This document shows, in pieces, positions 6,278 to 62,570 of a stretch of 64,000 nucleotides of DNA (positions within the stretch are counted from its first letter, which is position 1; each line of letters begins with the position of its first letter). Below the pieces are notes generated by a model that was not told the DNA's origin, ran no database searches, and saw only the letters and a list, made by a program, of their open reading frames with translations. The position numbers and the translations under genes were made by a program. Source of the DNA: Actinomycetota bacterium (GTDB lineage: Bacteria > Actinomycetota > UBA4738 > HRBIN12); the NCBI GenBank assembly GCA_050692435.1, contig JBOGVG010000103.1:2897-66896 (forward strand). The letters run 5' to 3'.

Positions 6278-6493
6278 GCGCCGGGCACCTCGGGACAGCA
6301 GCACCGGCAGGGGATCATGGCCCCAACGAGCCCGCGGCACCGTGTCCGGATCATTGCAACTGCAAATCCTACGCCATCCACGGAATCCCTGGCAAGCGAG
6401 GGCTTGACCGGGCGACCAGGCGGGTGCTTGGGTACGCGGTAGCCCGCGTGTGGACTTATCCGCGCCCGTGTGCTGGAGTTAAGGAGGGGGCCG

Positions 6494-40152: not shown

Positions 40153-40222
40153 CGGCCGGGCTATGGGCCCCCGATGACCCCGGTCGCCCCAGTCAGCGCC
40201 CCGGGGGGCACCTGTGGCTCGG

Positions 40223-40819: not shown

Positions 40820-40844
40820 TTCGGCCGGGTCTCCTTGGGGGCGT

Positions 40845-40860
40845 TGTTTCACGTGAAACG
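40845..40860. promoter_or_regulatory. parS centromere site TGTTTCACGTGAAACG
   Basis: 15/16 match to the consensus TGTTTCACGTGAAACA, with a perfect 14-bp palindromic core GTTTCACGTGAAAC. Confidence 0.85.
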
Positions 40861-40890
40861 CAACCCTTAGGGCCGGACCCGTGGGGCGCC

Positions 40891-41556
40891 TCAGGCCCGA
40901 GGCCGGATGACCACCCGCCGCTCCGGCTCCTCACCCCGGCTGGAGCTTTCAACCCCCGCCACGCCCGAGACGGCGTCGTGCACCACCTTCCGCTCGTAGG
41001 GGTTCATCGGCTCCAGCTCCTCCTCCCGCCCCGTCCGGGCCACCCTCTTGGCGATGTCGCGGGCCTTGGAGGCGAGCCGCGACCGCTGCCGCTTCTTGTA
41101 GTCCTCCACGTCCACGATCACCCGCGATCGCAGCCCGGTGCGGTGCCCAATCACGACCCTGGTCAGCTCCTGGAGCGCCTCCAACGTCTGCCCATGTCGC
41201 CCGATCAGCAACCCCATGTCCTCATCGTCCGGCCCCGTCCCTAGGACGTTCACGTACATCGTCCCCCCCTGCAGCTCCGGCTCGACGCCGGTGGTCAGGC
41301 CCATCCGGGAGAGCAACCCCTCGATGAACTCCGCGGCGATCTCCCCCTGGTCCTCGAGCTCGTCCTCCGAAACGGCGTCGGGGTGAGTCCTCAGCTTGAC
41401 CCGGACCACGGCGTCCTGGGCCCCGACTCCCAGGAACCCGGTCCTTGGCTCTTGGACGATCTGCACCGCGACTTCCTGCTCGCTCGCACCGAGATCGGCC
41501 AGGGCGGCCTCGACGGCCTCCTCAACGCTTGGGGCGCTTCTTTCGACTTCCTCCAT
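40891..41556 (-). CDS. jag: Jag/KhpB-type RNA-binding protein (Jag_N, KH, R3H)
   Basis: R3H motif EPMNPYERKVVHDAV and KH-like LIGRHGQTLEALQEL. The start is MEEVERS (cat 41554-41556), which overlaps the yidC 3' end by 35 nt. Confidence 0.85.
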   Translation of the reverse strand: MEEVERSAPSVEEAVEAALADLGASEQEVAVQIVQEPRTGFLGVGAQDAVVRVKLRTHPDAVSEDELEDQGEIAAEFIEGLLSRMGLTTGVEPELQGGTMYVNVLGTGPDDEDMGLLIGRHGQTLEALQELTRVVIGHRTGLRSRVIVDVEDYKKRQRSRLASKARDIAKRVARTGREEELEPMNPYERKVVHDAVSGVAGVESSSRGEEPERRVVIRPRA

Positions 41557-42610
41557 CGCGTCCTCCCGGACCGGGCCTCTTCGGCGGCTGCTTGGGCGAT
41601 CCCGGCTTCGACGTCCCGCCCGGCTTCGCCCCGCCCTGCCCAGCACGGCGCTGACGCTCCGCGTCAGCCCGCTCCATCAGCGACGCCAACAGGCCCCTCC
41701 GGGGCTGCTTCCCATCCGCCCGGGCCGCCAACTCCTCGACGGAAGGGCGGGTCCTCACCATGAAGTATTGCTGGCCGATCTGCCACAGGTTCGACGTGCT
41801 CCAGTACAGCACCAGGGCCACGGGGAAGAAGATCCCGAACACCCCGAATACCAGCGGCATCACCCGGAGAAGGGCCTGCTGCTGCTGGGAGGCGGCCCCC
41901 GGTGGGCTGGCCTTCTGCATCTGCCGCTGTTGGAAATAGGTGGTGCCAAACATGAGCGCCGCGGCGATGTAGTACGGGATGCGCACCGGCCAATCCTGGC
42001 CGCAGTCGACCGGGTAGCTCACCTGCACACGCTCGTCTCCATCGGGCACGGAGTCGCCGACCTCGGCATTGGGGTTGCCCGCCTGCGAGGGCGCGCACAG
42101 CAGGTTCATCCACAGGAAGTCCGTCCCCGACCTCGGCTGCGCCTCTTCCGGGATCTGGTCGATCTGGTCCATCGACTCGATGTTCGGGACCTGCCTGGTG
42201 ACGGCGGCCCGGAGCTCGCTCCCCTCCGGGAGGTGGATGGGGTGCTGGGGGAACCGCAACACCGAGTACATCGAGATGAAGATGGGGAGCTGGAGCAGGA
42301 CGGGCCAGCACCCTGAGAGCGGGCTCACCCCGTGCTCCTTGTACACCTTCATGATCTCTTCCTGCTGTTTCTGCTTGTTGCCCTTGTAGCGCTGCTGGAT
42401 GGCCTTGATCTTGGGCTGGACGAGCTGCATATGCTGCATGGATCGGATCTGCTTCACGCCCAGAGGAAGCAGCACCAGTCGGATCAGCAATGTGAGCACG
42501 ATGATGGTGACCCCGTAGTTGGGGATCAGGTCGTAGATCTCCGCAAGGACCCAGCCCAAGCCGTCGAGCAGGGCCTGCCAGGCCGGCGACCAAGGAACGG
42601 CGCCGATCAC
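41522..42610 (-). CDS. yidC: Membrane protein insertase YidC
   Basis: GVTIIVLTLLIRLVLLPL...QPKIKAIQQRYKGN...GCWPVLLQLPIF, with a basic C-terminal tail. The GTG start overlaps the yidD stop. Confidence 0.9.
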   Translation of the reverse strand: MIGAVPWSPAWQALLDGLGWVLAEIYDLIPNYGVTIIVLTLLIRLVLLPLGVKQIRSMQHMQLVQPKIKAIQQRYKGNKQKQQEEIMKVYKEHGVSPLSGCWPVLLQLPIFISMYSVLRFPQHPIHLPEGSELRAAVTRQVPNIESMDQIDQIPEEAQPRSGTDFLWMNLLCAPSQAGNPNAEVGDSVPDGDERVQVSYPVDCGQDWPVRIPYYIAAALMFGTTYFQQRQMQKASPPGAASQQQQALLRVMPLVFGVFGIFFPVALVLYWSTSNLWQIGQQYFMVRTRPSVEELAARADGKQPRRGLLASLMERADAERQRRAGQGGAKPGGTSKPGSPKQPPKRPGPGGRDGGSRKKRPKR

Positions 42611-42927
42611 CCACTCACCTCGGAACGTTCGGTCGTGTGTATGACATCCTCATACGGCACCCGGTGGGGTCGCCGCGCCGGTACCGGGTCGAGTCCTCCG
42701 TTGGTGAACGGCCCGCACCGCGCCACCCTCCACCCGGCCAGCATCACTCCGCGCGCGGCGCCGTGGGCCCGGATGGCCTCCTCCGCGTAGCGCGAGCAGG
42801 ACGGGTAGAACTTGCACTGGCCTCCCAACCACGCCGAGAGCGTGAGTCGGTACAGGCGGATCAGCCCGATCAGCGCGACCCGGGCCGGCGCGCCCGCCAC
42901 CCACATCGAACGCCGAAGGGTGATCAC
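42607..42927 (-). CDS. yidD: Membrane protein insertion efficiency factor YidD
   Basis: LIRLYRLTLSAWLGGQCKFYPSCSRYAEEAIRAHG...GLDPVP. The start is GTG 42927, overlapping the rnpA stop (GTGA), or alternatively ATG 42906. Confidence 0.85.
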   Translation of the reverse strand: MITLRRSMWVAGAPARVALIGLIRLYRLTLSAWLGGQCKFYPSCSRYAEEAIRAHGAARGVMLAGWRVARCGPFTNGGLDPVPARRPHRVPYEDVIHTTERSEVSG

Positions 42928-43310
42928 GGCCCGATCACACGCGCGCGCACAAGCAGCTCTTCCATCTCGGCCATCAGATCCCGCGTCTTGGCCCCGCGGA
43001 TGACTCCCCGGGCAACAATGGCGACGTCGTATCCCTCCCGAACCCGCGGCGCGAGCTCCCGCCACGGGGCCCTCAGGATGCGCCGGGCCCGATTCCGCAT
43101 GACCGCCCCGCCCACCCGCCGCCCCGCGACGAACGCCACGTTCCCCGACCCGGGCGCGACAAACACTACCATCCGTGCTCCACGAACCGGGCTCCCGGTA
43201 GCGAGGAGCCCGCCGACGCTCCACCCGTTCGTGGCCCTTGCTCCGCGCCTACGCTGACAGCCGTGCCCTGCCCTTGGTCCGGCGGCGGGCCAGGATGGCG
43301 CGCCCCCCAC
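42924..43310 (-). CDS. rnpA: RNase P protein component (start uncertain, likely overlaps rpmH)
   Basis: [23 protein letters not shown] is the RNR motif region. After the rpmH stop the only in-frame start is ATG 43172, which would delete the conserved N-terminal segment. An in-frame GTG at 43310 gives 128 aa. Confidence 0.7.
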
Positions 43311-43386
43311 GCGTCCGCATCCGCGCGCGGAACCCGTGGGTCTTCTTGCGCCTGCGGTTGTTGGGCTGGAACGTTCGCTTGGACAT
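43249..43386 (-). CDS. rpmH: 50S ribosomal protein L34
   Basis: [45 protein letters not shown]. Confidence 0.97.
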
Positions 43387-43511
43387 AGCCTCTTTCCGGG
43401 CCGACAAAGCCGGCTCGGACGCCGGCCGGCGTGAGTATACGAGAGCGCATCGGCGCAGGGCAAAGAGCGTCCAAACAGAAAGTGCGCCAAAAGGGCCCGC
43501 ATCGGACCCCT

Positions 43512-43637
43512 TGTGGAAAAGCCCGGTGCTATAGTGCGCGGCGCTTCCCCCTGGCGGCCCCGCCGAGATCCCCATCCGCGGGGCCGTTTCCCCTTCCCCC
43601 AAGGTTTTCCACACCTGTGGAAAGGGTCTGTGGATAT
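43512..43637. promoter_or_regulatory. DnaA-box cluster (4 boxes) in the rpmH-dnaA intergenic region; candidate oriC and/or dnaA autoregulatory region
   Basis: TTTTCCACA (43512-43520, minus), TTTTCCACA (43605-43613, plus), CTTTCCACA (43616-43624, minus) and ATATCCACA (43629-43637, minus), against the consensus TTATCCACA. Boxes 2 and 3 form the inverted repeat TTTCCACA-CC-TGTGGAAA. Confidence 0.65.
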
Positions 43638-45017
43638 ATGGCGGTAGCATCCTTCGCCGAAGCGGCTGAGCGCACCTGGGCCCGGGTCGTGGACCGGGCC
43701 CGCCAGGAACTGCCCGAGAGTTCTTTCTCGATGTGGTTCGTCGGCGTTCGCGCGACCAGCCTGCACGACGGGGTCCTGGAGGTGGTCGCACCCTCCGAGT
43801 ACGTCCGCGACCGCCTGGCCAAGAATTACCTCGACCTCATCCAGGCGGCCGCCGCAGACGCCCTCGGCCATCCGATCCAGATCCACCTCGGCTCCGACCC
43901 CGAGCCGGTCCGCCCGCCCCTCGGCGAGCCGTCGCCTCCCTCCCCAACCCGTCACGATGCCACCGCGGCGGCGCAGCTCGGGGCACCCGGACTCCCGTTC
44001 CCCAACTACACCTTTGAGACCTTCGTGGCCGGTCCGAGCAATCGGTTCGCTCATGCCGCCGCAATGGCGGTCGCCGAGTCTCCTCCCTCCAAGGCGTACA
44101 ACCCACTGTTCATCTACGGGGGGGTGGGCCTGGGCAAGACCCATCTCCTCGTGGCCATCGGCCATCACATGCACCGGCTCGCTCCGAACCTCCGCGTGAA
44201 GTACGTCACGTCCGAGAGCTTCATGGCCGAGTTCATCAAGGCCGTCCGGGAGCGCCAGGGCTACCAGTTCGCGGCCCGGCACCGCGACGTCCACGTGCTG
44301 ATGGTTGACGACATCCAGTTCCTGGCCAAGCGGGAGGAGACCCAGACCGAGTTCTTCCACACGTTCAATGCGTTGCACGAGAAGGAGCGGCAGATCGTGA
44401 TCGCTTCGGACCGCCCGCCCCAGGAGCTCGGCATGGAGGAGCGGCTCCAGAGCCGGTTCCGCCTTGGGCTCTGCGTCGATGTGCAGCCGCCCGACCTGGA
44501 GACCCGCATCGCCATCCTGCAACTGAAGGCGCAGCGGGAGGCGGTGCATCTCCCCGAGGATGTCATCGAGTTCATGGCCTCCAAGTTCGACCAGAGCGTC
44601 CGGGAGCTCGAGGGCGCACTGGTGCGGGTGGTGGCGTGGAGCGACCTCACGGGGCAGCCCATCTCGCTCGACCTAGCCGACCACGCTCTCGAAGACCTCC
44701 TGCCCCAGGCCGAGGCGGAGATCCCGCCGCAGCTCATCCTGGAAGAGACGGCCCGGTACTACAGCCTGGCCGTCGCGGACCTCGTCTCGAAGAGCCGATC
44801 CCGTCCGCTCACCAATGCCCGTCACGTCGCCATGTACCTGGTCCGCGAGTGCACCGGGATGACCCTCCCGAAGATCGGCGAACTCTTCGACCGGGACCAC
44901 ACCACCGCCCTGCACGGGATCAACAAGATCGACAAGAACCTGCGAGACCGCGAGCTTGTGTACCGGCAGGTGCAGGATCTGTCCCGGATCATCCGGAACA
45001 GGTCGAGGAGCCTGTGA
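43638..45017 (+). CDS. dnaA: Chromosomal replication initiator DnaA
   Basis: Walker [14 protein letters not shown]+ motifs, and the C-terminal DNA-binding domain [40 protein letters not shown]. The start is ATG 43638. Confidence 0.95.
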
Positions 45018-45147
45018 CCTCCGCTGGGGAAACCGTGGGACTTCCTGTGCGGTGCCGCGCGGCGCTCAGGGCCCGTGCACCCGTCTCCCCACGCCCCACA
45101 CATGTCGGACCCACGCGATACGCTCGGCGCATGGCCCCGATATCCCC

Positions 45148-45156
45148 GTTTCCACA
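45148..45156 (+). promoter_or_regulatory. Single DnaA box GTTTCCACA in the dnaA-dnaN spacer
   Basis: 8/9 match to the consensus. The spacer (45018-45216) also holds the comparatively AT-richer stretch CTACTACCACTACATGAAGAAGAACCACCAAGAAGAAG. Confidence 0.4.
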
Positions 45157-45216
45157 GGCCCTACTACCACTACATGAAGAAGAACCACCAAGAAGAAGCA
45201 GCGGGGAGGGAGACAC

Positions 45217-46320
45217 GTGAAGTTCCGGTGCGACCGAGATGCCCTGTCCGAGGCGCTCCAGACCGTTCAGCGAGGCGTGTCGTCCCGGCCGGGGATCCCG
45301 GCGCTCACGGGCGTACTGCTCGAGGCGAGGCCGAACGGTGCCCTCACGCTTACGACCACCGACCTCGAGGTCTCCGCCCGCCTCGGCATCGAGGTGCAGG
45401 TCCAGGAGGAGGGGATCGTCCTGGTACCGGCCCGCCTGCTCGGCGACACGGTGAAGAGCCTGTCCGACGCTCCGGTGGAGTTCGACGCGGACCAGAGCCA
45501 GGCCTGGATCCGCTGCGCCGCGTACGAGGGCGCGCTTCGCCTGCTCCCCGCGGAGGACTTCCCAGCACTGCAACCGCCCACGGGGACGCGGATCGTGGTG
45601 GAGGCCTCGAAGTTCACCGAGGCCGTGGGGCAGGTGGCCCGGGCGGCGTCCCGGGACGAGGCTCGGCCCGTCCTGACGGGCGTGCTGGTCGAGGTGAGCC
45701 GGGAGGGCCTCACACTCGTGTCCACGGACTCGTACCGGCTCGCGGTCCGGGAGCTGGTGGCCACGGCCGCGGCGGAGGGGAAGGCCATCGTGCCGGAGCG
45801 GGCCATGTCCGAGGCGGGACGGGCGGCGGCCGCGGTCGACAAGGGCGATGTCGAGCTGCTCGTCGACGAGAGCCAGGTGGCCTTCCAGATCGGGAACCTC
45901 ATGCTCACCTCGCGGCTGATCGAGGGCGAGTTCCCGAACTACCGCCAGCTCCTGCCGGAGGCCTACGAGAACCGGCTCACGGTGTCCAGGCAGCAGTTGA
46001 CCGACGCGGTGCGCCGGGTGGGCCTCCTGGCCAGGGACACCTCGCCGGTCCGCCTGGAGTTCAACGCTCTCGGCGTGAAGCTCTCGTCCTCCTCCCCGGA
46101 CCTCGGGCAGGCCGTGGAGGCCGTGGAGGCTCGGTACGAGGGCGAGGACATGACGGCCGCGTTTAACCCGGCCTACCTGGCCGATGGATTGGCGGCGGCC
46201 ACGGGCGAAACGGTTCGTCTCGAGGTTCGCGACGGGCTGAAGCCCGGCCTGATCAAGGGCGAGAGCGACGAGTTCACCTATCTGGTGATGCCGGTGCGCC
46301 TGCCCACTCCGGTCGGCTGA
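45217..46320 (+). CDS. dnaN: DNA polymerase III beta sliding clamp
   Basis: MKFRCDRDALSEALQTVQRGVSSR...LTGVLLEA... 367 aa with three-domain length. GTG start. Confidence 0.95.
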   Translation: MKFRCDRDALSEALQTVQRGVSSRPGIPALTGVLLEARPNGALTLTTTDLEVSARLGIEVQVQEEGIVLVPARLLGDTVKSLSDAPVEFDADQSQAWIRCAAYEGALRLLPAEDFPALQPPTGTRIVVEASKFTEAVGQVARAASRDEARPVLTGVLVEVSREGLTLVSTDSYRLAVRELVATAAAEGKAIVPERAMSEAGRAAAAVDKGDVELLVDESQVAFQIGNLMLTSRLIEGEFPNYRQLLPEAYENRLTVSRQQLTDAVRRVGLLARDTSPVRLEFNALGVKLSSSSPDLGQAVEAVEARYEGEDMTAAFNPAYLADGLAAATGETVRLEVRDGLKPGLIKGESDEFTYLVMPVRLPTPVG

Positions 46321-46336
46321 TCCTCCCGGGGATGCG

Positions 46337-47467
46337 TTGCGGCTTCTGTGGGCCGAGCTGAAGGATTTCCGCAACCACCCGAACACCCGCCTGCCCGACA
46401 TCCCCGATGGGTTGGTGGTGGCGGTGGGAGGGAACGGGGAGGGCAAGACGAACCTCCTCGAAGGCCTGGCGTTCCTGTTCTTCTTGGCATCGCCCCGGGT
46501 CTCGAGCACCGAGCCGCTGGTGCGCCGCGGCGCCGAGGCCGCCTATGTGCGCGGCGAGATCGAGACCGCAGGCGGACGGATCATGGTCGAGGTGGAGATC
46601 CCGGGGCGGGGAGCGAACCGGGTGCACGTGAACCGGTCCCCGGTGCGGCGGAAGCGGGACCTGCGGCGGCAGGTCCGGGCGGCGTTCTTCGGGCCCGACG
46701 ATCTGGACGTGGTCAGGGGCGATCCATCGGAACGAAGGAGGTTCATGGACGAGGCCGTGACGTCGCTGTGGCCGCTCAAGGAGTCGGCCCTCACGGCGTA
46801 CGACCGGACCCTTCGGCAGCGGAACCGCCTCCTTAAGGACTGGGAAGGCCGGGCGGGGCCGGCGGACCTCGAGACGTGGGATCGGGAACTGGTGGAGAAC
46901 GGGTGTGCCGTCATGCGGCTGCGGACGGAGGCGGTGGCGCGCCTTGCCCCGGGCGCCGAGGAGGAATTCGGGGTGCTGGCGGGGTACGGGCTGGCGAGCG
47001 AGTACCGGCCATCGGTGTGGGGCGAAAACCTGGAGGAGGCCTTCCGGGAGCGCCTGGCGGAGCGACGGCAGGACGAGCTGGTGCGCCGGACCAGCCTGGT
47101 CGGTCCGCACCGGGACGACCTGGAGCTCGCCGTGCGGGATCTCGGGGCCCGGGCGTTCGCCTCCCACGGCGAGGCTTGGGGGGCGGCGCTGTGCCTGCGC
47201 CTGGGGCTGGCCGAGGCCCTGGGAGAGGAGGCGGGGGAGCGCCCGGTCGTCCTGCTTGACGATCCCTTCTCCGCCTTGGACCCCCAGCGCCAGACGCGCG
47301 TTGGGGAGCGGCTCTCCGCCCGAGGCCAAGTTGTGCTGTCGGTCGCCGACGAGGCGCACGTCCCGGCGCACATGGACGCGGTGTGGGAAGTGTCGGCGGG
47401 TGCGGTTACGGTTCGAGGCGGGGGTTCGGGGGTCTCAACAAGCGACCCGGGAAGGGGGGGAGGGTGA
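46337..47467 (+). CDS. recF: DNA replication/repair protein RecF
   Basis: Walker A GGNGEGKTNLLEG, the signature region and Walker B VVLLDDPFSALD. TTG start. Confidence 0.9.
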   Translation: MRLLWAELKDFRNHPNTRLPDIPDGLVVAVGGNGEGKTNLLEGLAFLFFLASPRVSSTEPLVRRGAEAAYVRGEIETAGGRIMVEVEIPGRGANRVHVNRSPVRRKRDLRRQVRAAFFGPDDLDVVRGDPSERRRFMDEAVTSLWPLKESALTAYDRTLRQRNRLLKDWEGRAGPADLETWDRELVENGCAVMRLRTEAVARLAPGAEEEFGVLAGYGLASEYRPSVWGENLEEAFRERLAERRQDELVRRTSLVGPHRDDLELAVRDLGARAFASHGEAWGAALCLRLGLAEALGEEAGERPVVLLDDPFSALDPQRQTRVGERLSARGQVVLSVADEAHVPAHMDAVWEVSAGAVTVRGGGSGVSTSDPGRGGG

Positions 47468-47820
47468 TGCCGTCGGGAATGTGGCGGCGGGGCCGGAAGG
47501 ACGAGCGAACCATCGAGAGCACGCCCATCGGCGACGTGGTGGACGGACTCCTTCGGGAACGAGCCTTCGCCCGGGGGCTGCCCGTGGGGCGGCTGGCCAC
47601 CAAGTGGCAACTGGTGGTGGGGCCGCGCCTGGCCTCCGAGTCCGCCCCGGTGAGCCTGGAGGAAGGCGTCCTCGTGGTTGCCGCGAGCTCCGGGCCGTGG
47701 GGCGCGCAAGCCCGGTTCCTGGCCGACGAGATCCGCGGTCGGGCCAACGAAACGCTCGGATCCGACGAAGTCCGGAAGGTGCGGATCGTGGTCCGCGCCG
47801 AACCGCAGAGAGGCTTGTGA
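47467..47820 (+). CDS. dciA: DUF721/DciA-family protein (Rv0004 position, helicase-loading factor family)
   Basis: 117 aa: IGDVVDGLL...LATKWQLVVGPRLASESAPVSLEEGVLVVAASSGPWGAQARF. The ATG overlaps the recF TGA. It lies between recF and gyrB. Confidence 0.7.
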   Translation: MPSGMWRRGRKDERTIESTPIGDVVDGLLRERAFARGLPVGRLATKWQLVVGPRLASESAPVSLEEGVLVVAASSGPWGAQARFLADEIRGRANETLGSDEVRKVRIVVRAEPQRGL

Positions 47821-47868
47821 GGCAACGGTTTCGCAGTGCCCCCGACACCGGGCGGAGGGCGGTTGCGA

Positions 47869-47877
47869 TGGTAGAAT
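47869..47877 (+). promoter_or_regulatory. Extended -10 element TGgTAGAAT upstream of gyrB
   Basis: Read directly. It is the best TANNNT match in the 150-bp gap. No convincing -35 element is present. Confidence 0.35.
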
Positions 47878-47901
47878 TGCATGTGTAGTTCCCCCGCGTG
47901 A

Positions 47902-52369
<4,468 letters not shown>

Positions 52370-54623: not shown

Positions 54624-54698
54624 GGGCCTGTAGCTCAGCTCGGTTAGAGCGCATCCCTGATAAGGATGAGGTCGTTGGTTCAAGTCCAACCAGGCCCA
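54624..54698 (+). tRNA. ileT: tRNA-Ile (anticodon GAT)
   Basis: Hand-folded cloverleaf: acceptor GGGCCTG/CAGGCCC, D stem GCTC/GAGC, anticodon stem CATCC/GGATG with loop CTGATAA, and T arm GTTGG-TTCAAGT-CCAAC. CCA is not encoded. Confidence 0.95.
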
Positions 54699-54719
54699 CC
54701 GCGAAAGGAGGAGACTCGG

Positions 54720-54980: not shown

Positions 54981-55841
54981 ATGGCGGTGAGCGAGGCCTG
55001 GAAGACAGCCGAGCAGGCCGCCCGCGCGGCGCAGGTGGAGCTTCGGCCCTGCACTTCCCTGGAAGATGCCGACGAGATCCTGCGGATCATGATCGCCACC
55101 TGGGGAGAGCACCAGTTCGTGCCCAGGGAGATGATCCGGGCCCTGTCCGACAGCGGGAACGAACCGTACGGGGCGTTTCGGCAAGGCGAGATGGTCGGCT
55201 ATGTCCTGGGGTGGATGGGGTCCGACCGAGACGGGCCGCACGTCCATTCCCACATGCTCGCGGTTGCTCCCGAGCTCCGCTCTCGGGGCGTGGGGTACGC
55301 CCTGAAGCTCGCGCAGCGGGCCCAGGCCCTCGAGCAGGGCTACGGCGTGGTCCGGTGGACCTTCGACCCGCTCCAGTCCCGCAACGCGCACTTCAACATC
55401 GGCAAGCTCGGGGTGGTATGCGACCGGTTCCACCGCAACTTCTACGGGGCCATGACGGACGTGATGAATCGAGGGGAGCGGAGCGACCGGCTCGTGGTGC
55501 GGTGGGACCTGGACCGGGCGGCCGGACCTCGGCCGGTCCCGAAGGGTGACGAGGTCGCCGTGCTCGAGGCGAACGGACCGGACAATCTGCCCCGACCGGT
55601 GCGCGCGGAGCCGATCGCGCCGGACGGAGGGAGCCTGCGGGTGTGCATCCCCCACGACTACGCGGGCATGAAGCAACGGGACCCGGGCCTGGCAGCTGAA
55701 TGGCGAGAGGCCGTGGGAGATGTGTTGGAGGAGTGTTTCGGCCACGGCGCGATCGTCGTGGCCTTCGGCTCGGCCGGCGACCGAGCGCCGGGTTACCGCC
55801 TCGTCTTCCCAGGCGCCGCCGACGATTGGGCGGGCCGATGA
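54981..55841 (+). CDS. GNAT-family acyltransferase
   Basis: The acyl-CoA binding motif region LAVAPELRSRGVGYALKLAQRAQA is followed by RWTFDPLQSRNAHFNIGKLG. It is translationally coupled (ATGA) to the enolase-superfamily gene. Confidence 0.7.
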   Translation: MAVSEAWKTAEQAARAAQVELRPCTSLEDADEILRIMIATWGEHQFVPREMIRALSDSGNEPYGAFRQGEMVGYVLGWMGSDRDGPHVHSHMLAVAPELRSRGVGYALKLAQRAQALEQGYGVVRWTFDPLQSRNAHFNIGKLGVVCDRFHRNFYGAMTDVMNRGERSDRLVVRWDLDRAAGPRPVPKGDEVAVLEANGPDNLPRPVRAEPIAPDGGSLRVCIPHDYAGMKQRDPGLAAEWREAVGDVLEECFGHGAIVVAFGSAGDRAPGYRLVFPGAADDWAGR

Positions 55842-57007
55842 CGCGGATCCGGGCCGTCGAGCTCCGGCTGGTCTCGCTCCCCTTGGTGCGTCCCTTCAGG
55901 ACCAGCTTTGGCCAGGAGACGGAGAAGGTCTGCATCGTGGCACGGGTGGAGACCGACGACGCCGAGGGATGGGGCGAGTGCGTGACCGGTCCCGAACCGG
56001 GGTTCTCGGAGGAGTTCAACGAGGGTGCCTGGTCCGTGATCCGCGACTTCCTCGCCCCGGCCCTGTTCGGGGCGGGCGACATCTCGGCCGAGGGGCTGGA
56101 TTGGGCTTTCGCCTTCGTCCGAGGGAACCCCATGGCCAAGGCCACCCTGATCGACGCCGTACTCGATGCGGAGCTTCGGGCGGGGGGAGCCTCACTCGCC
56201 CGGTACCTCGGTGCCGAGCGAGACCGGGTGGCGTGTGGCGTCTCCGTGGGCATCGCCCCCACCGCCGAGGCGTTGGTGGAAGAGATCGGCAGCTATCTGG
56301 CCGAGGGATACCGACGGATCAAGCTGAAGATCCAGCCTGGCCTCGACGTCGAGCGGGTGGCCCCGGTGCGCGAGGCCTACCCCGAGGTCCTCCTGTCGGT
56401 AGACGCGAACGCCGCGTACACGCTGGAGGATGCCGGGACCTTCCTGGCCCTCGACGCCTTCGACCTGCTCATGGTGGAGCAGCCCTTGCACCACGAGGAC
56501 CTGGTGGACCACGCGGAGTTGCAACGGCGGATCCGCACGGACATCTGCCTGGACGAATCGATCCGCTCGGCGACCGGGGCGGGGGCCGCGTTGACGCTCG
56601 GTTCCTGCCGGATCGTGAACATCAAGCAGGGACGGGTCGGTGGGTTGCTGGAGGCGAGGCGCGTCCACGACGTCTGCCGTTCCGGGGGTGTTCCGGTGTG
56701 GTGCGGAGGGATGCTCGAGACCGGGATCGGCCGGGCAGCCAACCTGGCCCTGGCGGCGCTCCCCGGATTCACCTTGCCCGGGGACACGAGCGCCAGCCGC
56801 CGGTACTTCCACGAGGACCTCACCGAGCCCTTCGAGATGGACTCCGACGGGACGATGGCCGTGCCCCAGGGGCCGGGGCTCGGCGTGGAGCCCCGCCCCG
56901 AGCGCCTCACGGAATGCACCGTCCGGACGGAGCTCCTGAGAAAAGGTGACAAGATCGCCCATCCCGGCTTGACCGCCGGAGGTGGAGTCCCATACAGTGC
57001 GCGATGA
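55838..57007 (+). CDS. menC: Enolase-superfamily o-succinylbenzoate synthase / N-succinylamino-acid racemase
   Basis: MR/MLE-type: IKLKIQPG (KxK), SVDANAAY, MVEQPL, LDES and NIKQGRVGG. The OSBS versus NSAR role is ambiguous. Confidence 0.8.
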   Translation: MTRIRAVELRLVSLPLVRPFRTSFGQETEKVCIVARVETDDAEGWGECVTGPEPGFSEEFNEGAWSVIRDFLAPALFGAGDISAEGLDWAFAFVRGNPMAKATLIDAVLDAELRAGGASLARYLGAERDRVACGVSVGIAPTAEALVEEIGSYLAEGYRRIKLKIQPGLDVERVAPVREAYPEVLLSVDANAAYTLEDAGTFLALDAFDLLMVEQPLHHEDLVDHAELQRRIRTDICLDESIRSATGAGAALTLGSCRIVNIKQGRVGGLLEARRVHDVCRSGGVPVWCGGMLETGIGRAANLALAALPGFTLPGDTSASRRYFHEDLTEPFEMDSDGTMAVPQGPGLGVEPRPERLTECTVRTELLRKGDKIAHPGLTAGGGVPYSAR

Positions 57008-57267: not shown

Positions 57268-57900
57268 ATGAAGAAGCGTATTCTGCGGGCGGGCGAGATC
57301 GAGATCGAGGACTCCCAGGGCAAGGTCCGGGCCCGGCTGGGGGTGACGAACGACGACTCGCCGTTCATGGCCCTCTACGGCTCCGACGAGCGGCTCCGGG
57401 CCCGGTTCGGCGTCCAGCTCGACGGGTCGGCCGGGCTGGCCATCGCGGACGACGAGGGCAAGGTTCGGGCCACGTTCGGCCTGTTCTCTGACGGCTCGGC
57501 CAGCTTGGCCATGGTCGACAGGAACGGGAAGGTTCGCGCCAAGTTCGGGCTGGGGACCGAGGGTTCCCCCACCCTGGCCCTCCGTAACAAGGACGGGCAG
57601 CTCGGGTTCGTGTACAGCCTTGCGCAGCAAGGCTCTCCAACGATCTCCCTCCAAGACGAGGACGGGAAGGTCCGGGTCCGGCTGGGGCTGGCCGCGGAGG
57701 GGTCACCGATCCTCCGCCTGCTGAACAGGGAAGGCGAGCTCAGGGCGATCATGGGCCTCACCTCGGACGGCACGCCGGTGATCCAGTTCATGGACAAGAG
57801 GGGCGAGCCCATGTGGATGGCGCCCGAGAAGTTCCCCGAGGAGTTCTCCATCGAGGGGGAGCCCATGGCCGAGCCCGTACCGGACCCCGGGGAGGCCTAG
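57268..57900 (+). CDS. Novel repeat protein: seven and a half 23-residue repeats, no signal peptide
   Basis: GAGGGTG RBS. The repeats are FMALYGSDERLRARFGVQLDGSA / GLAIADDEGKVRATFGLFSDGSA / SLAMVDRNGKVRAKFGLGTEGSP / TLALRNKDGQLGFVYSLAQQGSP / TISLQDEDGKVRVRLGLAAEGSP / ILRLLNREGELRAIMGLTSDGTP and further units. The C-terminal tail is acidic. Confidence 0.7.
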   Translation: MKKRILRAGEIEIEDSQGKVRARLGVTNDDSPFMALYGSDERLRARFGVQLDGSAGLAIADDEGKVRATFGLFSDGSASLAMVDRNGKVRAKFGLGTEGSPTLALRNKDGQLGFVYSLAQQGSPTISLQDEDGKVRVRLGLAAEGSPILRLLNREGELRAIMGLTSDGTPVIQFMDKRGEPMWMAPEKFPEEFSIEGEPMAEPVPDPGEA

Positions 57901-57904: not shown

Positions 57905-58417
57905 GTGTCCGGCTGGTGGGTGGCCGCCTTCGCAGTCCAATGGGTACTGGTCGTCGTCCTGTGCGTCGTGGTGGTGGCCCTGGCCAGGCAGGTGGGCGTC
58001 CTCCACCTGCGCCTCGGACCGCTGGGCGCGCTGGAGGTCGATGAGGAGGGGCCGCCCCTCGGCGAGCCCGCCCAGCCGGTGACCGCCAGCGGACCCGATG
58101 GCGTTCCGACCGTGCTCGGAGGCCCCGGTCTGGGGCGCCTCGTCATGTTCGTCTCGCCCACCTGTCCCCTCTGCGAGCAGGTCCTTCCCTCGGTGGCCGC
58201 CGCGGCAAGCCTCTCCGGCCTGGTCCCGCAGGTGGTGTCGGACCCTGCTGCCGAGCACGCCTGGGGGGTGCCGGGCGTTCCTTTCGTGGTGGTCCTGAAC
58301 GAGGCGGGCGTTGTGCGGGCCAAAGGCACCGTGAACAACCTCGAGCAGCTCGAGGGGCTGGTGGACACGGCCTCCCGCCGCGCGGCCGAGCGGATCTTGG
58401 GGGTACCCGCCGGCTGA
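57905..58417 (+). CDS. MauD-like membrane-anchored thioredoxin-fold protein (CPLC)
   Basis: N-terminal TM segment followed by ALARQVGVLHLRLGPLGAL, then FVSPTCPLCEQVLP, then GVVRAKGTVNNLEQLEGLV. These match the MauD accessory-protein pattern as I recall it. GTG start. Confidence 0.7.
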   Translation: MSGWWVAAFAVQWVLVVVLCVVVVALARQVGVLHLRLGPLGALEVDEEGPPLGEPAQPVTASGPDGVPTVLGGPGLGRLVMFVSPTCPLCEQVLPSVAAAASLSGLVPQVVSDPAAEHAWGVPGVPFVVVLNEAGVVRAKGTVNNLEQLEGLVDTASRRAAERILGVPAG

Positions 58418-58944
58418 TGGGCTCGGATCTTGCCCGCGCCGAGGTCGAGCTGGCCCGCCGGACCAGCCGTCGCTCGTTCCTCGGCACGGTGGGCCGCGCG
58501 GTGGTGGCGTTGGCCGGTGGGCCGTTCGTGGCCGTGGCCCTCGCTCCGGAGCGGGCCGAGGCGCACCACATCTGCGGGCATATCTTCACGACGGGCTCCT
58601 GCCCTCACCCGTACGCGCCGCGCTCCCGGGTCGACGCGTACGGGTTCCCGGTGCATCCCAAGCACGGCTATCCCGTCGACGACGATGGGCGGATCTACAC
58701 CGACATCCGGCAGCGCCGGCGGAAGGTCTGCCAGGCTCGGGTCCCCGATGAGTACCCGGGCGTGAAGGACCCGCGCTACGGGGGCGGGTGGAGCCGGTGC
58801 TGCGACGGCAGGGTCCGGCACATCCAGGACTGTTGCTCGAGCTCGCGGATCCGCATCAACGGCGATCCCTCTGTTCGAGGGTACTGCCCGAAGAACCTTC
58901 GGGTGTTCTGCATCACGTACCGGGAGCTGAACGTGGCGTGTTGA
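58417..58944 (+). CDS. MauA-like (methylamine dehydrogenase light-chain-like) Cys-rich protein with Tat signal
   Basis: Twin-arginine leader ELARRTSRRSFLGTVGRAVVALAG. The mature part has 10 Cys and a single Trp (GGGWSRCCDGRVRHIQDCCS). The ATG overlaps the upstream TGA. Confidence 0.7.
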   Translation: MGSDLARAEVELARRTSRRSFLGTVGRAVVALAGGPFVAVALAPERAEAHHICGHIFTTGSCPHPYAPRSRVDAYGFPVHPKHGYPVDDDGRIYTDIRQRRRKVCQARVPDEYPGVKDPRYGGGWSRCCDGRVRHIQDCCSSSRIRINGDPSVRGYCPKNLRVFCITYRELNVAC

Positions 58945-59015
58945 CGGAGCCTGTGGCGATCGCCGTGGTCGTGGCGTCGCTCGTCGCGGGGGTGTCCACG
59001 CTCTTCGGCCCCTGA
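58938..59015 (+). CDS. Possible 25-aa hydrophobic micro-ORF (VLTEPVAIAVVVASLVAGVSTLFGP)
   Basis: The GTG overlaps the MauA-like stop (GTGTTGA) and the ORF fills the 80-nt gap before the next gene. No independent support. Confidence 0.2.
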   Translation: MLTEPVAIAVVVASLVAGVSTLFGP

Positions 59016-59024
59016 GGGCTCTCG

Positions 59025-60161
59025 ATGGTGGAGACCATCACGCCCGTGGTGCACGGGGGACGAAGGGGAAGGTGGGCGGGAGACGTGGCGCTCCACGTGG
59101 CCGGCGCGACGCTTTCGGCCGCGGCGTTCGGGGCGATCCTGGGGGCGGCCGGGTCGGTCCTAGGGGCTCCATGGGGACGTGGGGGCCTGGTGGTCGTCGT
59201 CGTGGCCTCGGTGATCTACCTGCTGCGCGAGGCGGGGGTGGTACCGGTGCCCGTTCCCCAGCTCCGCCGTCAGGTGCCCGAGTGGTGGCGGGCCTTCTTC
59301 CCGGCCCCGGTGGCGTCGTTCCTGTACGGGGCGGGCCTGGGGATCGGCTTCCTCACGTTCTTGCGACAAGGGACGCTGGTCGCCGTCGCCGCGGCCGCGG
59401 CTTCGTCGGGGAGGCCCGGTGTGGGAGCGTTGCTCGTCGCTCCATTCGGGGTCGCGCGGGGCCTGTCGGTGCTCGCGACGGCCCGGATCCGAGCGCCGGA
59501 GGAGGGGCGGGCGCTGATCGGACGCCTGGAGGCCGCGGCGTCGGCACCGGCGTGGCGGACCGCCCATGTCGCCGCCTTGGGCGCGATGACGGCGACGACG
59601 GCCTTCGCCGTGGCAGGCTCCGGGGCCGGCGTCCGGGTCGGAGCGGTGGCGGCTGGAGTGCTCGGCGCGGTGTTCGCCTGGTCCGCCGGGGGCAAGCTCC
59701 TGAGCCCGAGGGACTGGCGCCGGGCCCGCTCCGCCCACGGTCTGCGAGGCCCGCTCGACCAGTTCGCCGCGATCGGCGCACCGGTCGCGGAGGCCGGGGT
59801 CCTCGGGCTCGTCGTCGTCGGGTTGCACCGAACGGCCGGCATCGCCGGTCTGCCCCTGCTACTCGTGTTCTCGCTCGCCGTCCTGCGGGCTCGGCGAAGG
59901 GCCGGGGACCTCGTTCCGTGTGGGTGCTTCGGAACGGTAAAGGCGCATGACTACCGGGTGCTGCTCCTTCGGAACGCGGTCCTGACCGTTGCCGCGGCGG
60001 TCGCCGCGGTCTGGGGGGTGGATAGCCCTCGGCTTCGGACTCCGGGGATCCCCACCGGCCCCGACGTTCTCCCCCTGGCCTTCGCCGTCGTCGGCCTGAG
60101 CGTGGCGGCGTGGACGATGGTGCGGTCGGTCCGATCCCTCGGCCGGCGGGGAGCTGCGTGA
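59025..60161 (+). CDS. Polytopic membrane protein: unknown N-terminal domain fused to a MauE/DoxX-like domain (CGCFG)
   Basis: The C-terminal half (FAWSAGGKLLSPRDW...VAEAGVLGLVVVG...LVPCGCFG...LLRNAVL) fits the MauE pattern. The N-terminal ~190 aa has 4-5 TM segments (RRQVPEWWRAFF...FLYGAGLGIGFLTF). Confidence 0.65.
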   Translation: MVETITPVVHGGRRGRWAGDVALHVAGATLSAAAFGAILGAAGSVLGAPWGRGGLVVVVVASVIYLLREAGVVPVPVPQLRRQVPEWWRAFFPAPVASFLYGAGLGIGFLTFLRQGTLVAVAAAAASSGRPGVGALLVAPFGVARGLSVLATARIRAPEEGRALIGRLEAAASAPAWRTAHVAALGAMTATTAFAVAGSGAGVRVGAVAAGVLGAVFAWSAGGKLLSPRDWRRARSAHGLRGPLDQFAAIGAPVAEAGVLGLVVVGLHRTAGIAGLPLLLVFSLAVLRARRRAGDLVPCGCFGTVKAHDYRVLLLRNAVLTVAAAVAAVWGVDSPRLRTPGIPTGPDVLPLAFAVVGLSVAAWTMVRSVRSLGRRGAA

Positions 60162-60772
60162 AACGAGGGTTCCGCGGCGTCACGATGGTGGTCGCGGTGC
60201 TGGCGTCGATAGGGCTCTCCGCGATCATCCCGGCCCTCGCCGCCCGGACGAACCTGGGCGATGCGAACGACAGCCCCGGGCCCCTGGACCTGCGGCACAT
60301 TCGGTTCGACCAGGACGCCGGCCCGGCCTCATGGGCGCTGCACACGTTCGGCTCCTGGACCGTCGACGACATCCAGGACTCGGGCTTCGTGTTGGTGATC
60401 CTCGACACGCTGGGGAGCCCCGACGAGGACTACCTAGTTGTCGTCCGGTCCGACGGACCGAAGCTGGTCGGCCTGCTCCTCCGTCGGCGGACGGGCGGCC
60501 GGGACACCGAGATCGGCCGGGTCCGGGTGGCGAAGTCCGGAGCCGATGGGGTCACGATGACGGTGGACATGGGCAAGCTGAATTTCGGGCCGACGCGAAC
60601 GTTGTACTTCTGGTGGGTACTCTCGCAGTTCACCGGGAAGGAATGTCCGCGGACCTGTCTGGACCGCGCGCCCGAGGAACGGGCCGTGCAGCAGAAGATC
60701 CCGAGCCCGTCGCCCACGCCCACCCCCTCACCCAGTCCCACCGACAGCCCCACGCCGTCGCCGAGCCCGTAA
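60158..60772 (+). CDS. Secreted protein of unknown function with SP/TP-rich C-terminal tail
   Basis: The GTG overlaps the upstream TGA. Signal peptide VKRGFRGVTMVVAVLASIGLSAIIPALAA. The tail reads PSPSPTPTPSPSPTDSPTPSPSP. Confidence 0.6.
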   Translation: MKRGFRGVTMVVAVLASIGLSAIIPALAARTNLGDANDSPGPLDLRHIRFDQDAGPASWALHTFGSWTVDDIQDSGFVLVILDTLGSPDEDYLVVVRSDGPKLVGLLLRRRTGGRDTEIGRVRVAKSGADGVTMTVDMGKLNFGPTRTLYFWWVLSQFTGKECPRTCLDRAPEERAVQQKIPSPSPTPTPSPSPTDSPTPSPSP

Positions 60773-61292: not shown

Positions 61293-61801
61293 ATGGCCCG
61301 TAAGATGCTGATTGCCGAGCAGTCCATCGCGACCAACGGCGTCACTAGCGTGACGCCCTGGACGGAAGCACGCGATCGCTTCGCGGAGGCGAATAGGTAC
61401 TGGCTAGCGACGGTGCGCCCAGACGGGAGACCACATATCATGCCGGTGTTCGGTGTCTGGGTGGGCGATGCTCTGTACTTCACAGCGGCCCGCACGAGCC
61501 GCAAGGCGAAGAACCTCGCGCTAAACGCCCGATGTGTGGTCGCGGCTGAGGTTCCCACCCTCGATGTGGTCGTCGAGGGCGAAGCCGTGAGGGTAAGCGA
61601 CGAGGCGAAGCTCCATCTCGTGGCCGACGCATACGCGTCCAAGTACGAGTGGCCCCTGACGGTGCGCGACGGCGCCTTCTTCGCGGAGTACGGAGCCCCC
61701 TCCGCCGGCTCGCCCCCGTACGACCCGTACGAGATGACGCCGGTGACGGGCTTCGGTCTCGGCATGGACGGCCATTCGGGGCCGCGCGTTGGAAATTCTA
61801 G
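61293..61801 (+). pseudogene. PPOX-class (pyridoxamine 5'-phosphate oxidase family, F420/FMN-binding) gene with apparent 3' frameshift
   Basis: WLATVRPDGRPHIMPVFGVWVGDALYFTAARTSRKAKNL... is typical of the family. An alternate frame ends HGRPFGAARWKF-TAG (61763-61801), resembling the family C-terminus. As assembled, the gene reads through in frame into the next gene. Confidence 0.55.
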
Positions 61802-61826
61802 ACGGGGTGCTCCCAGGCGACGAGCC

Positions 61827-62570
61827 ATGAAGCGCGGACTGTACTTGGCACCGTTCGACGAGTTGGCGGATCCGCGTCTCCTGGCCGAGCTCCCCAGGGT
61901 TGCTGAGTCCCGAGGTTGGGACGGCCTGTTCCTGTGGGATCGGATCGCGTATCCGCCCTCGGACCGCGCCGTGGCCGACCCATGGGTGGGACTCAGCGCC
62001 ATCGCTTCCAAGACGGACAGCCTTCGTATCGGGCCGATGATCACTCCGCTCTCGCGGAGGCGCGTCCAGAAGGTCGCACGGGAGACGGCCACGCTGGACC
62101 ACCTGAGCAACGGGCGTCTGAAACTGGGCGTCGGGCTCGGCAACACCGACGATCTCAGGCCTTACGGAGAGGCCATCGATCCACTCGAGCGCGCGCGCCT
62201 GCTGGATGAGGGCTTGGAGCGGCTCAGTGGATTCTGGAACGGCGCATTCCGCCCCCTCCCGGTACAGCGCCCGCGGATCCCCGTCTGGGTCGCGGCGAAC
62301 TGGCCCAATAGGGGCCCGGTCCGACGCGCGGCTCGATGGGACGGGTTGTTCCCGATCGATCTCCCCGGACCCGAGCAGCTCGCCGAACTCGCCGAAGCTC
62401 TTCGGCAGGAGCGTGCCGGGAGCGAGGATCCCTTCGATCTCGTCGTCGAGGTGCCGCCCGGAGCCGACGCTCATGCGTGGGAGGCCGCTAGCGCGACATG
62501 GGTGCTCACGAGCATCGAGCCGCAGCCCCCGGAGCACGAGATACGTGGGGTGATCGAAGCTGGTCCCTGA
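61827..62570 (+). CDS. LLM-class flavin/F420-dependent oxidoreductase (short form)
   Basis: MKRGLYLAPFDELADPRLLAELPRVAESRGWDGLFLWDRI...LGVGLG.... It shares the frame of ORF 61293..62570, and its codon usage is less GC-biased than the rest of the window. Confidence 0.6.
   Translation: MKRGLYLAPFDELADPRLLAELPRVAESRGWDGLFLWDRIAYPPSDRAVADPWVGLSAIASKTDSLRIGPMITPLSRRRVQKVARETATLDHLSNGRLKLGVGLGNTDDLRPYGEAIDPLERARLLDEGLERLSGFWNGAFRPLPVQRPRIPVWVAANWPNRGPVRRAARWDGLFPIDLPGPEQLAELAEALRQERAGSEDPFDLVVEVPPGADAHAWEAASATWVLTSIEPQPPEHEIRGVIEAGP

Follow-up and report, generated by a model that had tools for sequence, protein, structure and literature searches.

A family of small exported ten-cysteine, one-tryptophan proteins encoded beside MauD, MauF and MauE homologues in Actinomycetota, and a candidate selenocysteine codon in the MauF-MauE gene

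The operon and its ten-cysteine product

The locus described here lies within a 64,000-nucleotide stretch of DNA (the window) from an Actinomycetota bacterium (GenBank assembly GCA_050692435.1, contig JBOGVG010000103.1, positions 2,897 to 66,896). It consists of five tightly packed genes, conserved as an operon in 84 loci, which encode in order a beta-hairpin-repeat protein, a MauD-like thioredoxin-fold protein, a small cysteine-rich protein with a predicted twin-arginine translocation (Tat) leader, a MauF-like domain fused to a MauE domain, and a second secreted protein (Table 1). The third gene is the subject of this report, and we refer to its product as the ten-cysteine protein. An initial annotation of the window had compared it with MauA, the small subunit (light chain) of methylamine dehydrogenase (MADH), and had concluded that its single tryptophan could not form the tryptophan tryptophylquinone (TTQ) cofactor of that enzyme. 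The gene occupies a fixed slot, always directly after the MauD-like thioredoxin and directly before the MauF homologue, and its ATG overlaps the stop codon of the upstream gene as ATGA.

The single Trp (W125, nucleotides 58789-58791) lies within the motif G-x-W-x-R-C-C, and the Cys count is ten (residues 53, 62, 105, 128, 129, 139, 140, 157, 165 and 175). Both counts agree with the initial annotation, and the strings that it quoted (DLARAEVELARRTSRRSFLGTVGRAVVALAG, GGGWSRCC, RHIQDCCS and RVFCITY) were all found in the open reading frame (ORF). A chance ORF was ruled out by the gene-like GC content at the codon positions (GC3 0.89 versus GC2 0.55) together with 945 database homologues. Relatives were present in 204 species-level genomes, from which 80 genome-derived loci were analyzed, nearly all of them from metagenome-assembled genomes of uncultured Actinomycetota; across these 80 loci the 126-residue core of the protein is 65-98% identical.

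The initial annotation had proposed conservation of the lone Trp and its flanking Cys pair as the test of its argument, and on this point it was borne out. W125 and the ten Cys are invariant in 35 close homologues, remain so in 93 aligned sequences that include a sister subfamily with 41-48% identity, and reach 97% conservation or more among 139 unique mature domains taken from genomes and metagenomes, of which 133 carry exactly ten Cys. These 139 domains share a single conserved Trp column (38 members carry one to four extra, non-conserved Trp), and no second conserved Trp column appeared in either the set of 93 or the set of 139. The pattern conserved at the 97% level or above reads CGH..TT..CP.P / R.D / G.W.RCC / R...DCC / RINGD / GYC / VFC..Y / C-terminal C, with CGH, DCC, RINGD, GYC and VFC as invariant motifs of the mature domain. 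The protein has seven His, and H55 alone is kept once the sister subfamily is included. Invariance as such does not single W125 out, since approximately 36 of the 126 positions of the mature domain share it.

Searches of Pfam, NCBIfam and PDB with the single sequence and with a family profile returned the Tat signal as the only match (NCBIfam TIGR01409, TAT_signal_seq, 18.4 bits versus a cut-off of 16.7). The AxA motif A47-E48-A49 places the likely leader cleavage site after A49. An exhaustive search of sequence representatives yielded no more than 227 at E<=0.001, mostly fragments or frame-fused calls, and gave no visible bridge to another family. Judged by its sequence, the protein founds an unannotated family of small, predictedly exported proteins with ten cysteines and one tryptophan.

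Table 1. Coordinates in the window of the operon genes and of the features within them
Feature	Position	Strand	Remarks
Beta-hairpin-repeat protein, first operon gene	57268-57900	+	210 aa, about seven 23-residue repeats
MauD-like membrane-anchored thioredoxin-fold protein	57905-58417	+	170 aa, CPLC at nt 58163-58174
Ten-cysteine protein, ORF	58417-58944	+	175-aa precursor, third gene of five-gene operon
Tat leader of ten-cysteine protein, residues 1-49	58417-58563	+	Twin arginines R18 R19
Mature domain of ten-cysteine protein, residues 50-175 and stop codon	58564-58944	+	From alignments of homologues
MauF-like domain fused to MauE domain	58938-60161	+	407 codons, reads through in-frame TGA
Candidate selenocysteine codon TGA	59013-59015	+	Residue 26, motif FGP-U-GLSMVETI
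SECIS-like element, two conserved hairpins just 3' of TGA	59024-59057	+	RNAalifold consensus
Hairpin H1	59024-59039	+	GAUGGU-GGAG-ACCAUC
Hairpin H2	59043-59057	+	CCCGU-loop-ACGGG, invariant GU in loop
Secreted protein, last operon gene	60158-60772	+	204 aa, Sec-type signal peptide

Leader and mature domain compared with MauA

The MauA features quoted in the initial annotation proved accurate: the leader pattern matches the MauA precursors, which read ..FDDLFEKMSRKVAGHTSRRGFIGRVGT.., and the count of 12 Cys against 10 in the ten-cysteine protein holds for the light chain. The mature light chain of Paracoccus denitrificans is the sequence of PDB 2bbk_L, with 12 Cys and 4 Trp. When full-length profiles were compared with hhalign, the leader alone aligned, with residues 2-33 of the ten-cysteine protein set against residues 9-39 of MauA (31 columns, probability 96.7%, E 3.4e-10). 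A hidden Markov model (HMM) of the MauA leader gave the new family a median score of 26 bits, with 39.9 as the highest value, compared with 1.9-17.7 bits for 14 control Tat leaders from E. coli and B. subtilis. The signal sits in the core A-x-R-T-S-R-R-S-F-L-x-R-x-G and the hydrophobic h-region, while an HMM made from the n-region of the MauA leader alone gave no signal in the family. The likeness claimed for the leader therefore stands for the twin-arginine core and h-region and falls away for the N-terminal extension.

The likeness claimed for the mature part, which set GGGWSRCC against ASWVASC, DCCS against DCCG and VFCITY against IIWCFG, was statistically undetectable by Pfam, BLASTP and hhalign. 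Pfam PF02975 did not match the ten-cysteine protein at E<=1 or its divergent relatives at E<=10, phmmer and hmmsearch against PDB gave no matches at E<=10, and the best BLASTP hit to 2bbk_L was 15 residues of noise (E 0.73). In hhalign the mature profiles matched that of MauA with a probability of 1.2%, or 0.6% with a broad profile. The 0.6% path does pair DCCS with DCCG and VFCITY with IIWCFG and so matches part of the earlier alignment, at a P of about 0.1; the 1.2% path follows a different register. Both forced alignments, being weak and mutually inconsistent, were set aside.

Two AlphaFold models of the protein were built and both were compared with PDB using Foldseek. The second model reaches a predicted local distance difference test (pLDDT) score of 84-97 over residues 61-140, and its predicted core consists of a helix (104-112) and a three-stranded sheet (120-129, 132-141 and 162-174). 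Neither model found a structural neighbor in PDB (best E 0.68 and 0.42, with template modeling (TM) scores of at most 0.26); the second gave a best E of 0.42 and TM scores of at most 0.22. Matches to NTF2-like, IGPD and GFP structures were dismissed as noise-level. No chain of MADH, aromatic amine dehydrogenase (AADH) or quinohemoprotein amine dehydrogenase (QHNDH) was among the 50 Foldseek matches listed, and the predicted models lend no support to a light-chain fold.

A tblastn search at E<0.01 for MauB, MauC, MauG, MauJ, MauM and MauN found none of them in the window or in 86 loci. With no MauB-type heavy chain found there, the label of small subunit is unproven. The claim that TTQ is impossible is upheld: with a single conserved Trp in the family and MauG absent from the window and the 86 loci, this cofactor cannot form. 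The ten-cysteine protein is an analogue of MauA in its leader, its operon slot and its maturation machinery. It does not, however, qualify for the MauA family on four defining features: there is no profile match, no light-chain fold in the models, no pair of conserved Trp and no MauB or MauG.

The MauD, MauF and MauE homologues and an in-frame TGA

The gene upstream of that of the ten-cysteine protein was found in 84 of 84 loci and encodes a protein with a hydrophobic N-terminus. Its product matched NCBIfam TIGR02661 (E 5.7e-22) with 78 bits, under the equivalog cut-off of 188.6, and Pfam Thioredoxin_3 with E 3e-4; tblastn with a canonical Paracoccus-type MauD gave 31% identity over 147 amino acids (E 1.5e-10). 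It is best called MauD-like.

The gene downstream is annotated in the database from 59025 to 60161 only, as a 378-amino-acid protein of the 'MauE/DoxX family', and the best 120 database relatives all begin at the same MVET. Its start appears to lie 87 nucleotides upstream of the annotated ATG, at a GTG at 58938 (ATG in several loci) that overlaps the stop codon of the ten-cysteine gene, so that the 80 nucleotides between that gene and the ATG would be coding. From this start the frame encodes a hydrophobic helix that runs to ..AGVSTLFGP, meets a TGA and continues with G-L-S-M-V-E-T-I-T-P.., giving a reconstituted peptide LFGP-U-GLSMVETITPVVHGGR across the TGA. The MauE half matched Pfam PF07291 (E 1.8e-21, 77.2 bits versus a cut-off of 27), and its CGC is encoded at nucleotides 59919-59927, with PCGCFG at residues 327-332 of the 407-codon protein. 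Residue U26 at the TGA and residues C328 and C330 are the only redox residues in the protein.

When the reconstituted N-terminal domain was compared by BLASTP with canonical MauF, using sequences from Methylobacterium- and Paracoccus-type mau clusters, 33% identity was obtained over 179 amino acids (E 1e-9), and the alignment runs across the TGA position, where MauF has its invariant Cys (WSPCG). Canonical MauF reads ..LLSTWSPCGYSS.. and ..RVPYPQRRAQVPHDARQRFP.., and both motifs are present in the window protein. The invariant positions of the MauF alignment are P25, C/U26, G27, P107, Q108, R110, Q112, V113 and P114. In the sister subfamily (loci L085 and L086) the ORF is uninterrupted and encodes Cys at the TGA position (..GAWSPCGFSMVET..).

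The TGA at position 59013 is present in 83 of 83 genome loci, while the stop codon of the ten-cysteine gene itself varies among TGA, TAG and TAA. It precedes the ATG, with which it shares the frame, by 9 nucleotides (three codons) in every case. The first codon after it varies synonymously (GGC 42, GGG 30, GGA 7, GGT 4), as does the second (CTG, CTC, TTG, CTA, CTT), and the protein flanks are conserved on both sides as AG.S.L.GP-*-G.SMVETI, in which the asterisk stands for the TGA. Metagenomes were then scanned with the MauF alignment and 80 loci were kept. The P-x-G motif was found in 78 of these, and the codon between the Pro and the Gly was TGC (37), TGT (11) or TGA (30) and nothing else. 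Two TGA-bearing MauF groups (L109-L126 and L144) are distinct from the family in the window (GAWSP*GFSMVETIVPVVHG and GAWSP*GLSMVETFTPAVCG) and lie next to Cys-type relatives; those of the second group are close (GAWSP-U-GLSMVETFTPAVCG versus GAWSP-C-GFAMIETFTPHMCG). This distribution suggests that Cys and selenocysteine (Sec) may have been exchanged repeatedly within the MauF family.

Two hairpins, H1 and H2, just 3' of the TGA form an element resembling a selenocysteine insertion sequence (SECIS). Over codons +3 to +14 the synonymous-codon entropy is 0.37 bit, whereas the rest of the gene has 1.20 bit (Mann-Whitney p = 8e-5), and each of the codons TCG, ACC, ATC, CCC and GGG is kept in 69-70 of 70 loci. 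Pairing over 81 distinct Sec-type sequences is 96.9% for H1 and 91.2% for H2; one H2 pair changes from U-A to C-G in a separate clade, and there is otherwise little covariation. Folding stability at equal GC content is higher for the Sec forms (z -1.37) than for the Cys forms (z -0.15), and the Thr codon of H1 is ACC in the Sec forms inspected and mostly ACG in the Cys forms. An Rfam search around the TGA matched no model and no SECIS family. The H2 loop lies 36-40 nucleotides from the U of the UGA, which we take to be near the upper limit of published bacterial SECIS models.

Taken together, these comparisons make it highly probable that the TGA encodes selenocysteine, and mark MauF-MauE as a candidate selenoprotein. 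An alternative code in which TGA specifies Trp or Gly was ruled out, as TGA terminates the ten-cysteine gene and other genes in the same loci. The TGA could also be an ordinary stop, in which case the operon would encode a 25-amino-acid hydrophobic peptide and a separate MauE from the ATG at 59025, with TGAGG serving as a Shine-Dalgarno sequence. The GAGG 7 nucleotides before the ATG fits such an arrangement, as do the choice of MVET as the start by all gene callers and the failure to match a SECIS family in Rfam. The scan of the window for tRNA genes found no tRNA-Sec, no NCBIfam selenoprotein model matched MauF-MauE, and searches by term in a 2026 review of the prokaryotic selenoproteome (PMC13188914) and in the deep-Sep paper turned up nothing on Mau, DoxX or methylamine. 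An ordinary stop would nevertheless leave unexplained both the homology to MauF on its two sides, with the TGA set against the invariant Cys, and the exclusive use of Cys or TGA in 78 of 78 further loci, with at least three TGA-bearing groups (that of the window and two others) that have close Cys relatives, and is disfavored for these reasons. Nor does it sit well with a spacing of exactly three codons in every case, with two codons after the TGA that vary synonymously, with a hairpin H1 that would sequester the ATG, or with flanks at which conservation of the protein is highest, as would be unusual for protein ends. We therefore consider an ordinary stop improbable.

The 80 metagenome MauF loci show two contexts only. 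Canonical mauF-mauB-mauE-mauD-mauA clusters account for 12 of them, and all others that retain the upstream flank have MauD, a member of the ten-cysteine family and then MauF. The order of D followed by A is kept in both contexts. MauE is fused to MauF in the clade of the window; in the sister clade its fusion partner is MauD, at least in L086. The sister-subfamily genes lie at L085:847-2325 and at L086:4742-5605 and 6215-7672; P0131 is called as a fusion of MauD with the ten-cysteine protein and P0135 as a fusion of MauE, MauD and the ten-cysteine protein, although some of the fusion calls may be frame errors. The sister-subfamily MauF, which is of the Cys type, carries a C-terminal domain of approximately 260 amino acids that looks extracytoplasmic and has faint matches to beta-propeller repeats. 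A PDB search with this domain found nothing, and a propeller nature is at most faintly hinted at by the repeat matches.

Neighboring genes, proposed role and known systems

The first operon gene was found in 76 of the 84 loci, where it invariably comes just before the MauD-like gene (53-98% identity, a conservation equal to that of the ten-cysteine protein), and was not found beside the divergent loci of the sister subfamily. Its repeats have the consensus D..GKVRA.FGL..DGSP.L.L, conservation starts at MKKR with no conserved extension upstream of it, and the product has no signal peptide. There was no Pfam or NCBIfam family match, while a profile matched engineered OspA beta-hairpin-repeat (single-layer beta-sheet) proteins in PDB (E 7.7e-7). 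The protein could act as a chaperone or as a Tat hitch-hiking partner. The last operon gene, whose start overlaps the stop codon of the MauF-MauE gene, was detected in 64 of the 84 loci (26-93% identity) and encodes a conserved domain of about 150 amino acids that ends in C-P-R-T-C and is followed by a Pro/Ser/Thr-rich tail. It matched nothing in Pfam, NCBIfam or PDB.

The locus lies approximately 13 kb from dnaA. The region 38818-52369 holds parA, yidC, dnaA (43431-45017), dnaN, recF, gyrB and gyrA in an order typical of a replication origin. This distance to dnaA-dnaN-recF-gyrB-gyrA places the operon in the chromosomal core, and a mobile or plasmid origin was ruled out on the same grounds. 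Just upstream of the operon, at 55700-57007 and 54981-55841, are an o-succinylbenzoate synthase gene (MenC, TIGR01928 above cut-off) and a GNAT-like gene, and homologous ORFs occupy these positions in 34 of 38 full-length loci. A link between menaquinone synthesis by MenC and a quinone-dependent MauE is possible, but the arrangement may be mere synteny. A fusion of PNPOx-like and luciferase-like monooxygenase domains just downstream of the operon (61293-62570) is not conserved beside it in other loci, and the sole tRNA gene in the window is a tRNA-Ile (GAT) at 54624-54700.

We lean towards the view that the ten-cysteine protein is a second client of the MauD/MauE/MauF maturation pathway, that is, a small secreted protein that probably holds five disulfides. 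In Chistoserdov's mau genetics, mutants in mauD, mauE and mauF reportedly lack the small subunit. The precursor would be exported through the Tat pathway by its MauA-like leader, which would be removed after A-E-A49, and the membrane-anchored MauD would use its CPLC to oxidize the ten Cys to five disulfides on the outer face of the membrane. The MauE domain, through its CGC, would re-oxidize MauD and pass the electrons to the quinone pool. The MauF domain, with Sec in place of the conserved Cys, may provide a third redox center that relays or reshuffles disulfides; the Sec/Cys pair at this position marks it as a redox-active residue. Ten invariant Cys are an even number and thus compatible with full pairing. 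The product would be a disulfide-knotted domain of approximately 126 residues with a new fold, in which an invariant polar cluster (H55, W125, R127, R134, D138, R146, N148 and D150) might form a specific binding or catalytic site, and it would not be a TTQ protein and would have no MauB-type partner. Experiments on MauE from other phyla have shown that it generates disulfides in the manner of DsbB, which it can replace by means of its CXC motif (bioRxiv 10.64898/2026.03.05.709764), and PMC7794033 cites van der Palen et al. (1997) for mauD, mauE and mauF mutants that lack the small subunit.

Several points weigh against this proposal. The disulfide pattern of the ten-cysteine protein is a prediction from its sequence, and a cofactor derived from the protein itself would be equally in keeping with the many invariant polar residues and with the invariant Trp next to two Cys. 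Tat export usually implies folding or cofactor loading in the cytoplasm, which is a poor fit with oxidation after export, although this paradox is common to MauA. MauE is moreover a generalist (bioRxiv 10.64898/2026.03.05.709764), and its presence alone is thus a weak sign of a dedicated relationship.

The initial annotation had offered two outcomes for a protein without TTQ, a Cys-Trp cross-link of the cysteine tryptophylquinone (CTQ) type or a purely disulfide-knotted protein. Of these, the conserved operon favors disulfides only, since it holds no hydroxylase or radical SAM enzyme; no radical SAM or FAD/flavoprotein domain was called among the operon genes. The alternative is that the protein is a highly diverged MauA homologue and the catalytic small subunit of a quinoprotein, in which W125 would be oxidized and cross-linked to a nearby Cys to give a Trp-derived quinone, and whose partner might possibly be the beta-hairpin-repeat protein, the secreted product of the last operon gene or the domain fused to MauF in the sister subfamily. 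W125 is indeed invariant in G-x-W-x-R-C-C along with R127, D138, N148, D150 and H55, the slot, leader and helpers are those of MauA, the weak hhalign path reproduces the pairings DCCS/DCCG and VFC/IWC, and the 260-amino-acid domain of the sister MauF, with its faint propeller-repeat matches, is reminiscent of the heavy chains of MADH and QHNDH, which are propellers. Arguments to the contrary are the lack of significant sequence or fold likeness to any TTQ or CTQ subunit and the failure to find MauG, a LodB/QhpG-type flavoprotein or a QhpD-type radical SAM enzyme in the operon, the window or the 86 loci. A cross-link to one Cys would furthermore leave an unpaired Cys among the ten, and the repeat protein has no signal peptide. 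On balance we regard this alternative as unlikely.

Two other functions appear less likely still. The protein might bind a metal or an iron-sulfur cluster that is loaded in the cytoplasm, with the Cys as ligands and the neighboring thiol oxidoreductases keeping them reduced or delivering the metal. A Tat signal that scores above its cut-off, a Cys-rich composition with a CGH...CP motif near the mature N-terminus and a cytoplasmic first operon gene product that could act as a chaperone would all suit such a redox protein. The Cys spacing, with two CC pairs and further single Cys distributed over 120 residues, fits no ferredoxin, high-potential iron-sulfur protein (HiPIP), Rieske or cupredoxin pattern and no Pfam family, however, and H55 is the sole invariant His with the sister subfamily included; MauA shows that a Tat substrate may carry disulfides without a metal, and MauE is a thiol oxidase. 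This makes a metal-binding role very unlikely. We give equally little credence to a secreted bioactive or signaling precursor, resembling a bacteriocin or a ribosomally synthesized, post-translationally modified peptide (RiPP), for which disulfide formation would be the only tailoring. The protein is small, Cys-rich and bears a leader, and decRiPPter found MauE/MauD clusters with precursors of at least 8 Cys in Streptomyces that have no mau genes (PMC7794033), but a 126-residue core with 65-98% identity at a locus in the chromosomal core does not resemble bacteriocin loci, which evolve fast, genes for immunity, a protease or an ABC exporter are missing from the operon, and the leader is a Tat signal rather than a RiPP recognition leader. 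It is a long shot, finally, that a Sec-dependent MauF-MauE matures the protein so that W125 becomes a new cofactor of the Cys-Trp type made without MauG, and that the product serves soil Actinomycetota as the catalytic subunit of a novel oxidoreductase outside the cell.

To our knowledge, MauD, MauE and MauF have been tied for thirty years to the single client MauA, and we know of no function for MauF. If the ten-cysteine protein is a client, its family, found in 204 species-level genomes, would offer a second widespread setting for work on the pathway, since the MauF neighbors in the metagenome loci kept are either MauA or members of this family only. A Sec/Cys pair, as seen at the only invariant Cys of MauF, classically marks a catalytic redox residue. 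This leads to a hypothesis open to testing, in which MauF is a thiol/selenol oxidoreductase that acts together with the single CXC pair of MauE. Should the assignment of Sec hold true, the prokaryotic selenoproteome would gain a family of polytopic membrane proteins, and the best 120 database entries, truncated at the TGA and deprived of the putative active-site residue, would represent a propagating annotation error. The ten-cysteine protein, with a fold that is confidently predicted but has no PDB neighbor and with a conserved Trp-Arg-Cys-Cys site, is a candidate for structural work and for a cofactor search.

Several known systems share parts of this arrangement. QhpC, the CTQ-bearing gamma subunit of QHNDH, and the LodA/GoxA oxidases offer the concept of a single modified Trp cross-linked to Cys, in the case of QhpC within a small, heavily cross-linked polypeptide. 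The profile of the new family matched no chain at E<=10 in PDB, which includes QHNDH and LodA-type structures, neither QhpC nor LodA is among the Foldseek matches listed, and the operon lacks the QhpD radical SAM enzyme, the QhpE protease and the QhpG/LodB flavoprotein. The cross-links of QhpC are thioethers made in the cytoplasm, whereas the present system is built on extracytoplasmic thiol oxidoreductases. The Streptomyces clusters found by decRiPPter (PMC7794033) likewise place MauE, with or without MauD, beside a small Cys-rich precursor (at least 8 Cys) in Actinobacteria without mau genes. They differ, as far as their description goes, from the present product, a strongly conserved domain of 126 residues that bears a Tat leader and for which MauF is an obligatory partner.

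The bacterial thiol-oxidoreductase selenoproteins (DsbA-like, Trx/Prx-like and the rhodanese/DsbD fusion-like TsoB; PMC13188914) resemble MauF-MauE in having Sec in place of a redox Cys with known Cys homologues, in a hairpin within the coding sequence just 3' of the UGA and in the truncation of the gene by gene callers. MauF-MauE differs from them as a polytopic membrane protein with a (G/S)-P-U-G motif and no CxxU/UxxC partner nearby. From the DsbB/DsbA-like MauE/MauD pair (bioRxiv 10.64898/2026.03.05.709764) the operon retains the CGC-F-G motif of MauE and the CxxC of a MauD-like thioredoxin, and from canonical MauF the P-C-G motif, with TGA at the position of its Cys, and the P-Q-x-R-x-Q-V-P motif. 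Here, however, MauF and MauE form one polypeptide, the Cys of MauF is replaced by what is presumably selenocysteine, the MauD-like protein scores below the equivalog cut-off, and the client is not MauA.

The closest comparison remains MauA itself (PF02975; PDB 2bbk_L and 2agl_D). Both proteins have a long Tat leader with the core A-x-R-T-S-R-R-S/G-F-L/I-x-R-x-G and a Cys-rich mature domain of approximately 125 residues with a D-C-C motif, and both are encoded directly after mauD in operons with mauE and mauF homologues. They differ in that the mature part of the ten-cysteine protein has no detectable similarity to MauA in sequence or predicted fold, in the number of Cys (10 versus 12), and in having one conserved Trp in place of the two that form TTQ. 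The loci differ as well, those of the ten-cysteine protein being without mauB, mauG, amicyanin, mauJ, mauM and mauN. MauA occurs in methylotrophic Proteobacteria, while the new family is found in uncultured Actinomycetota.

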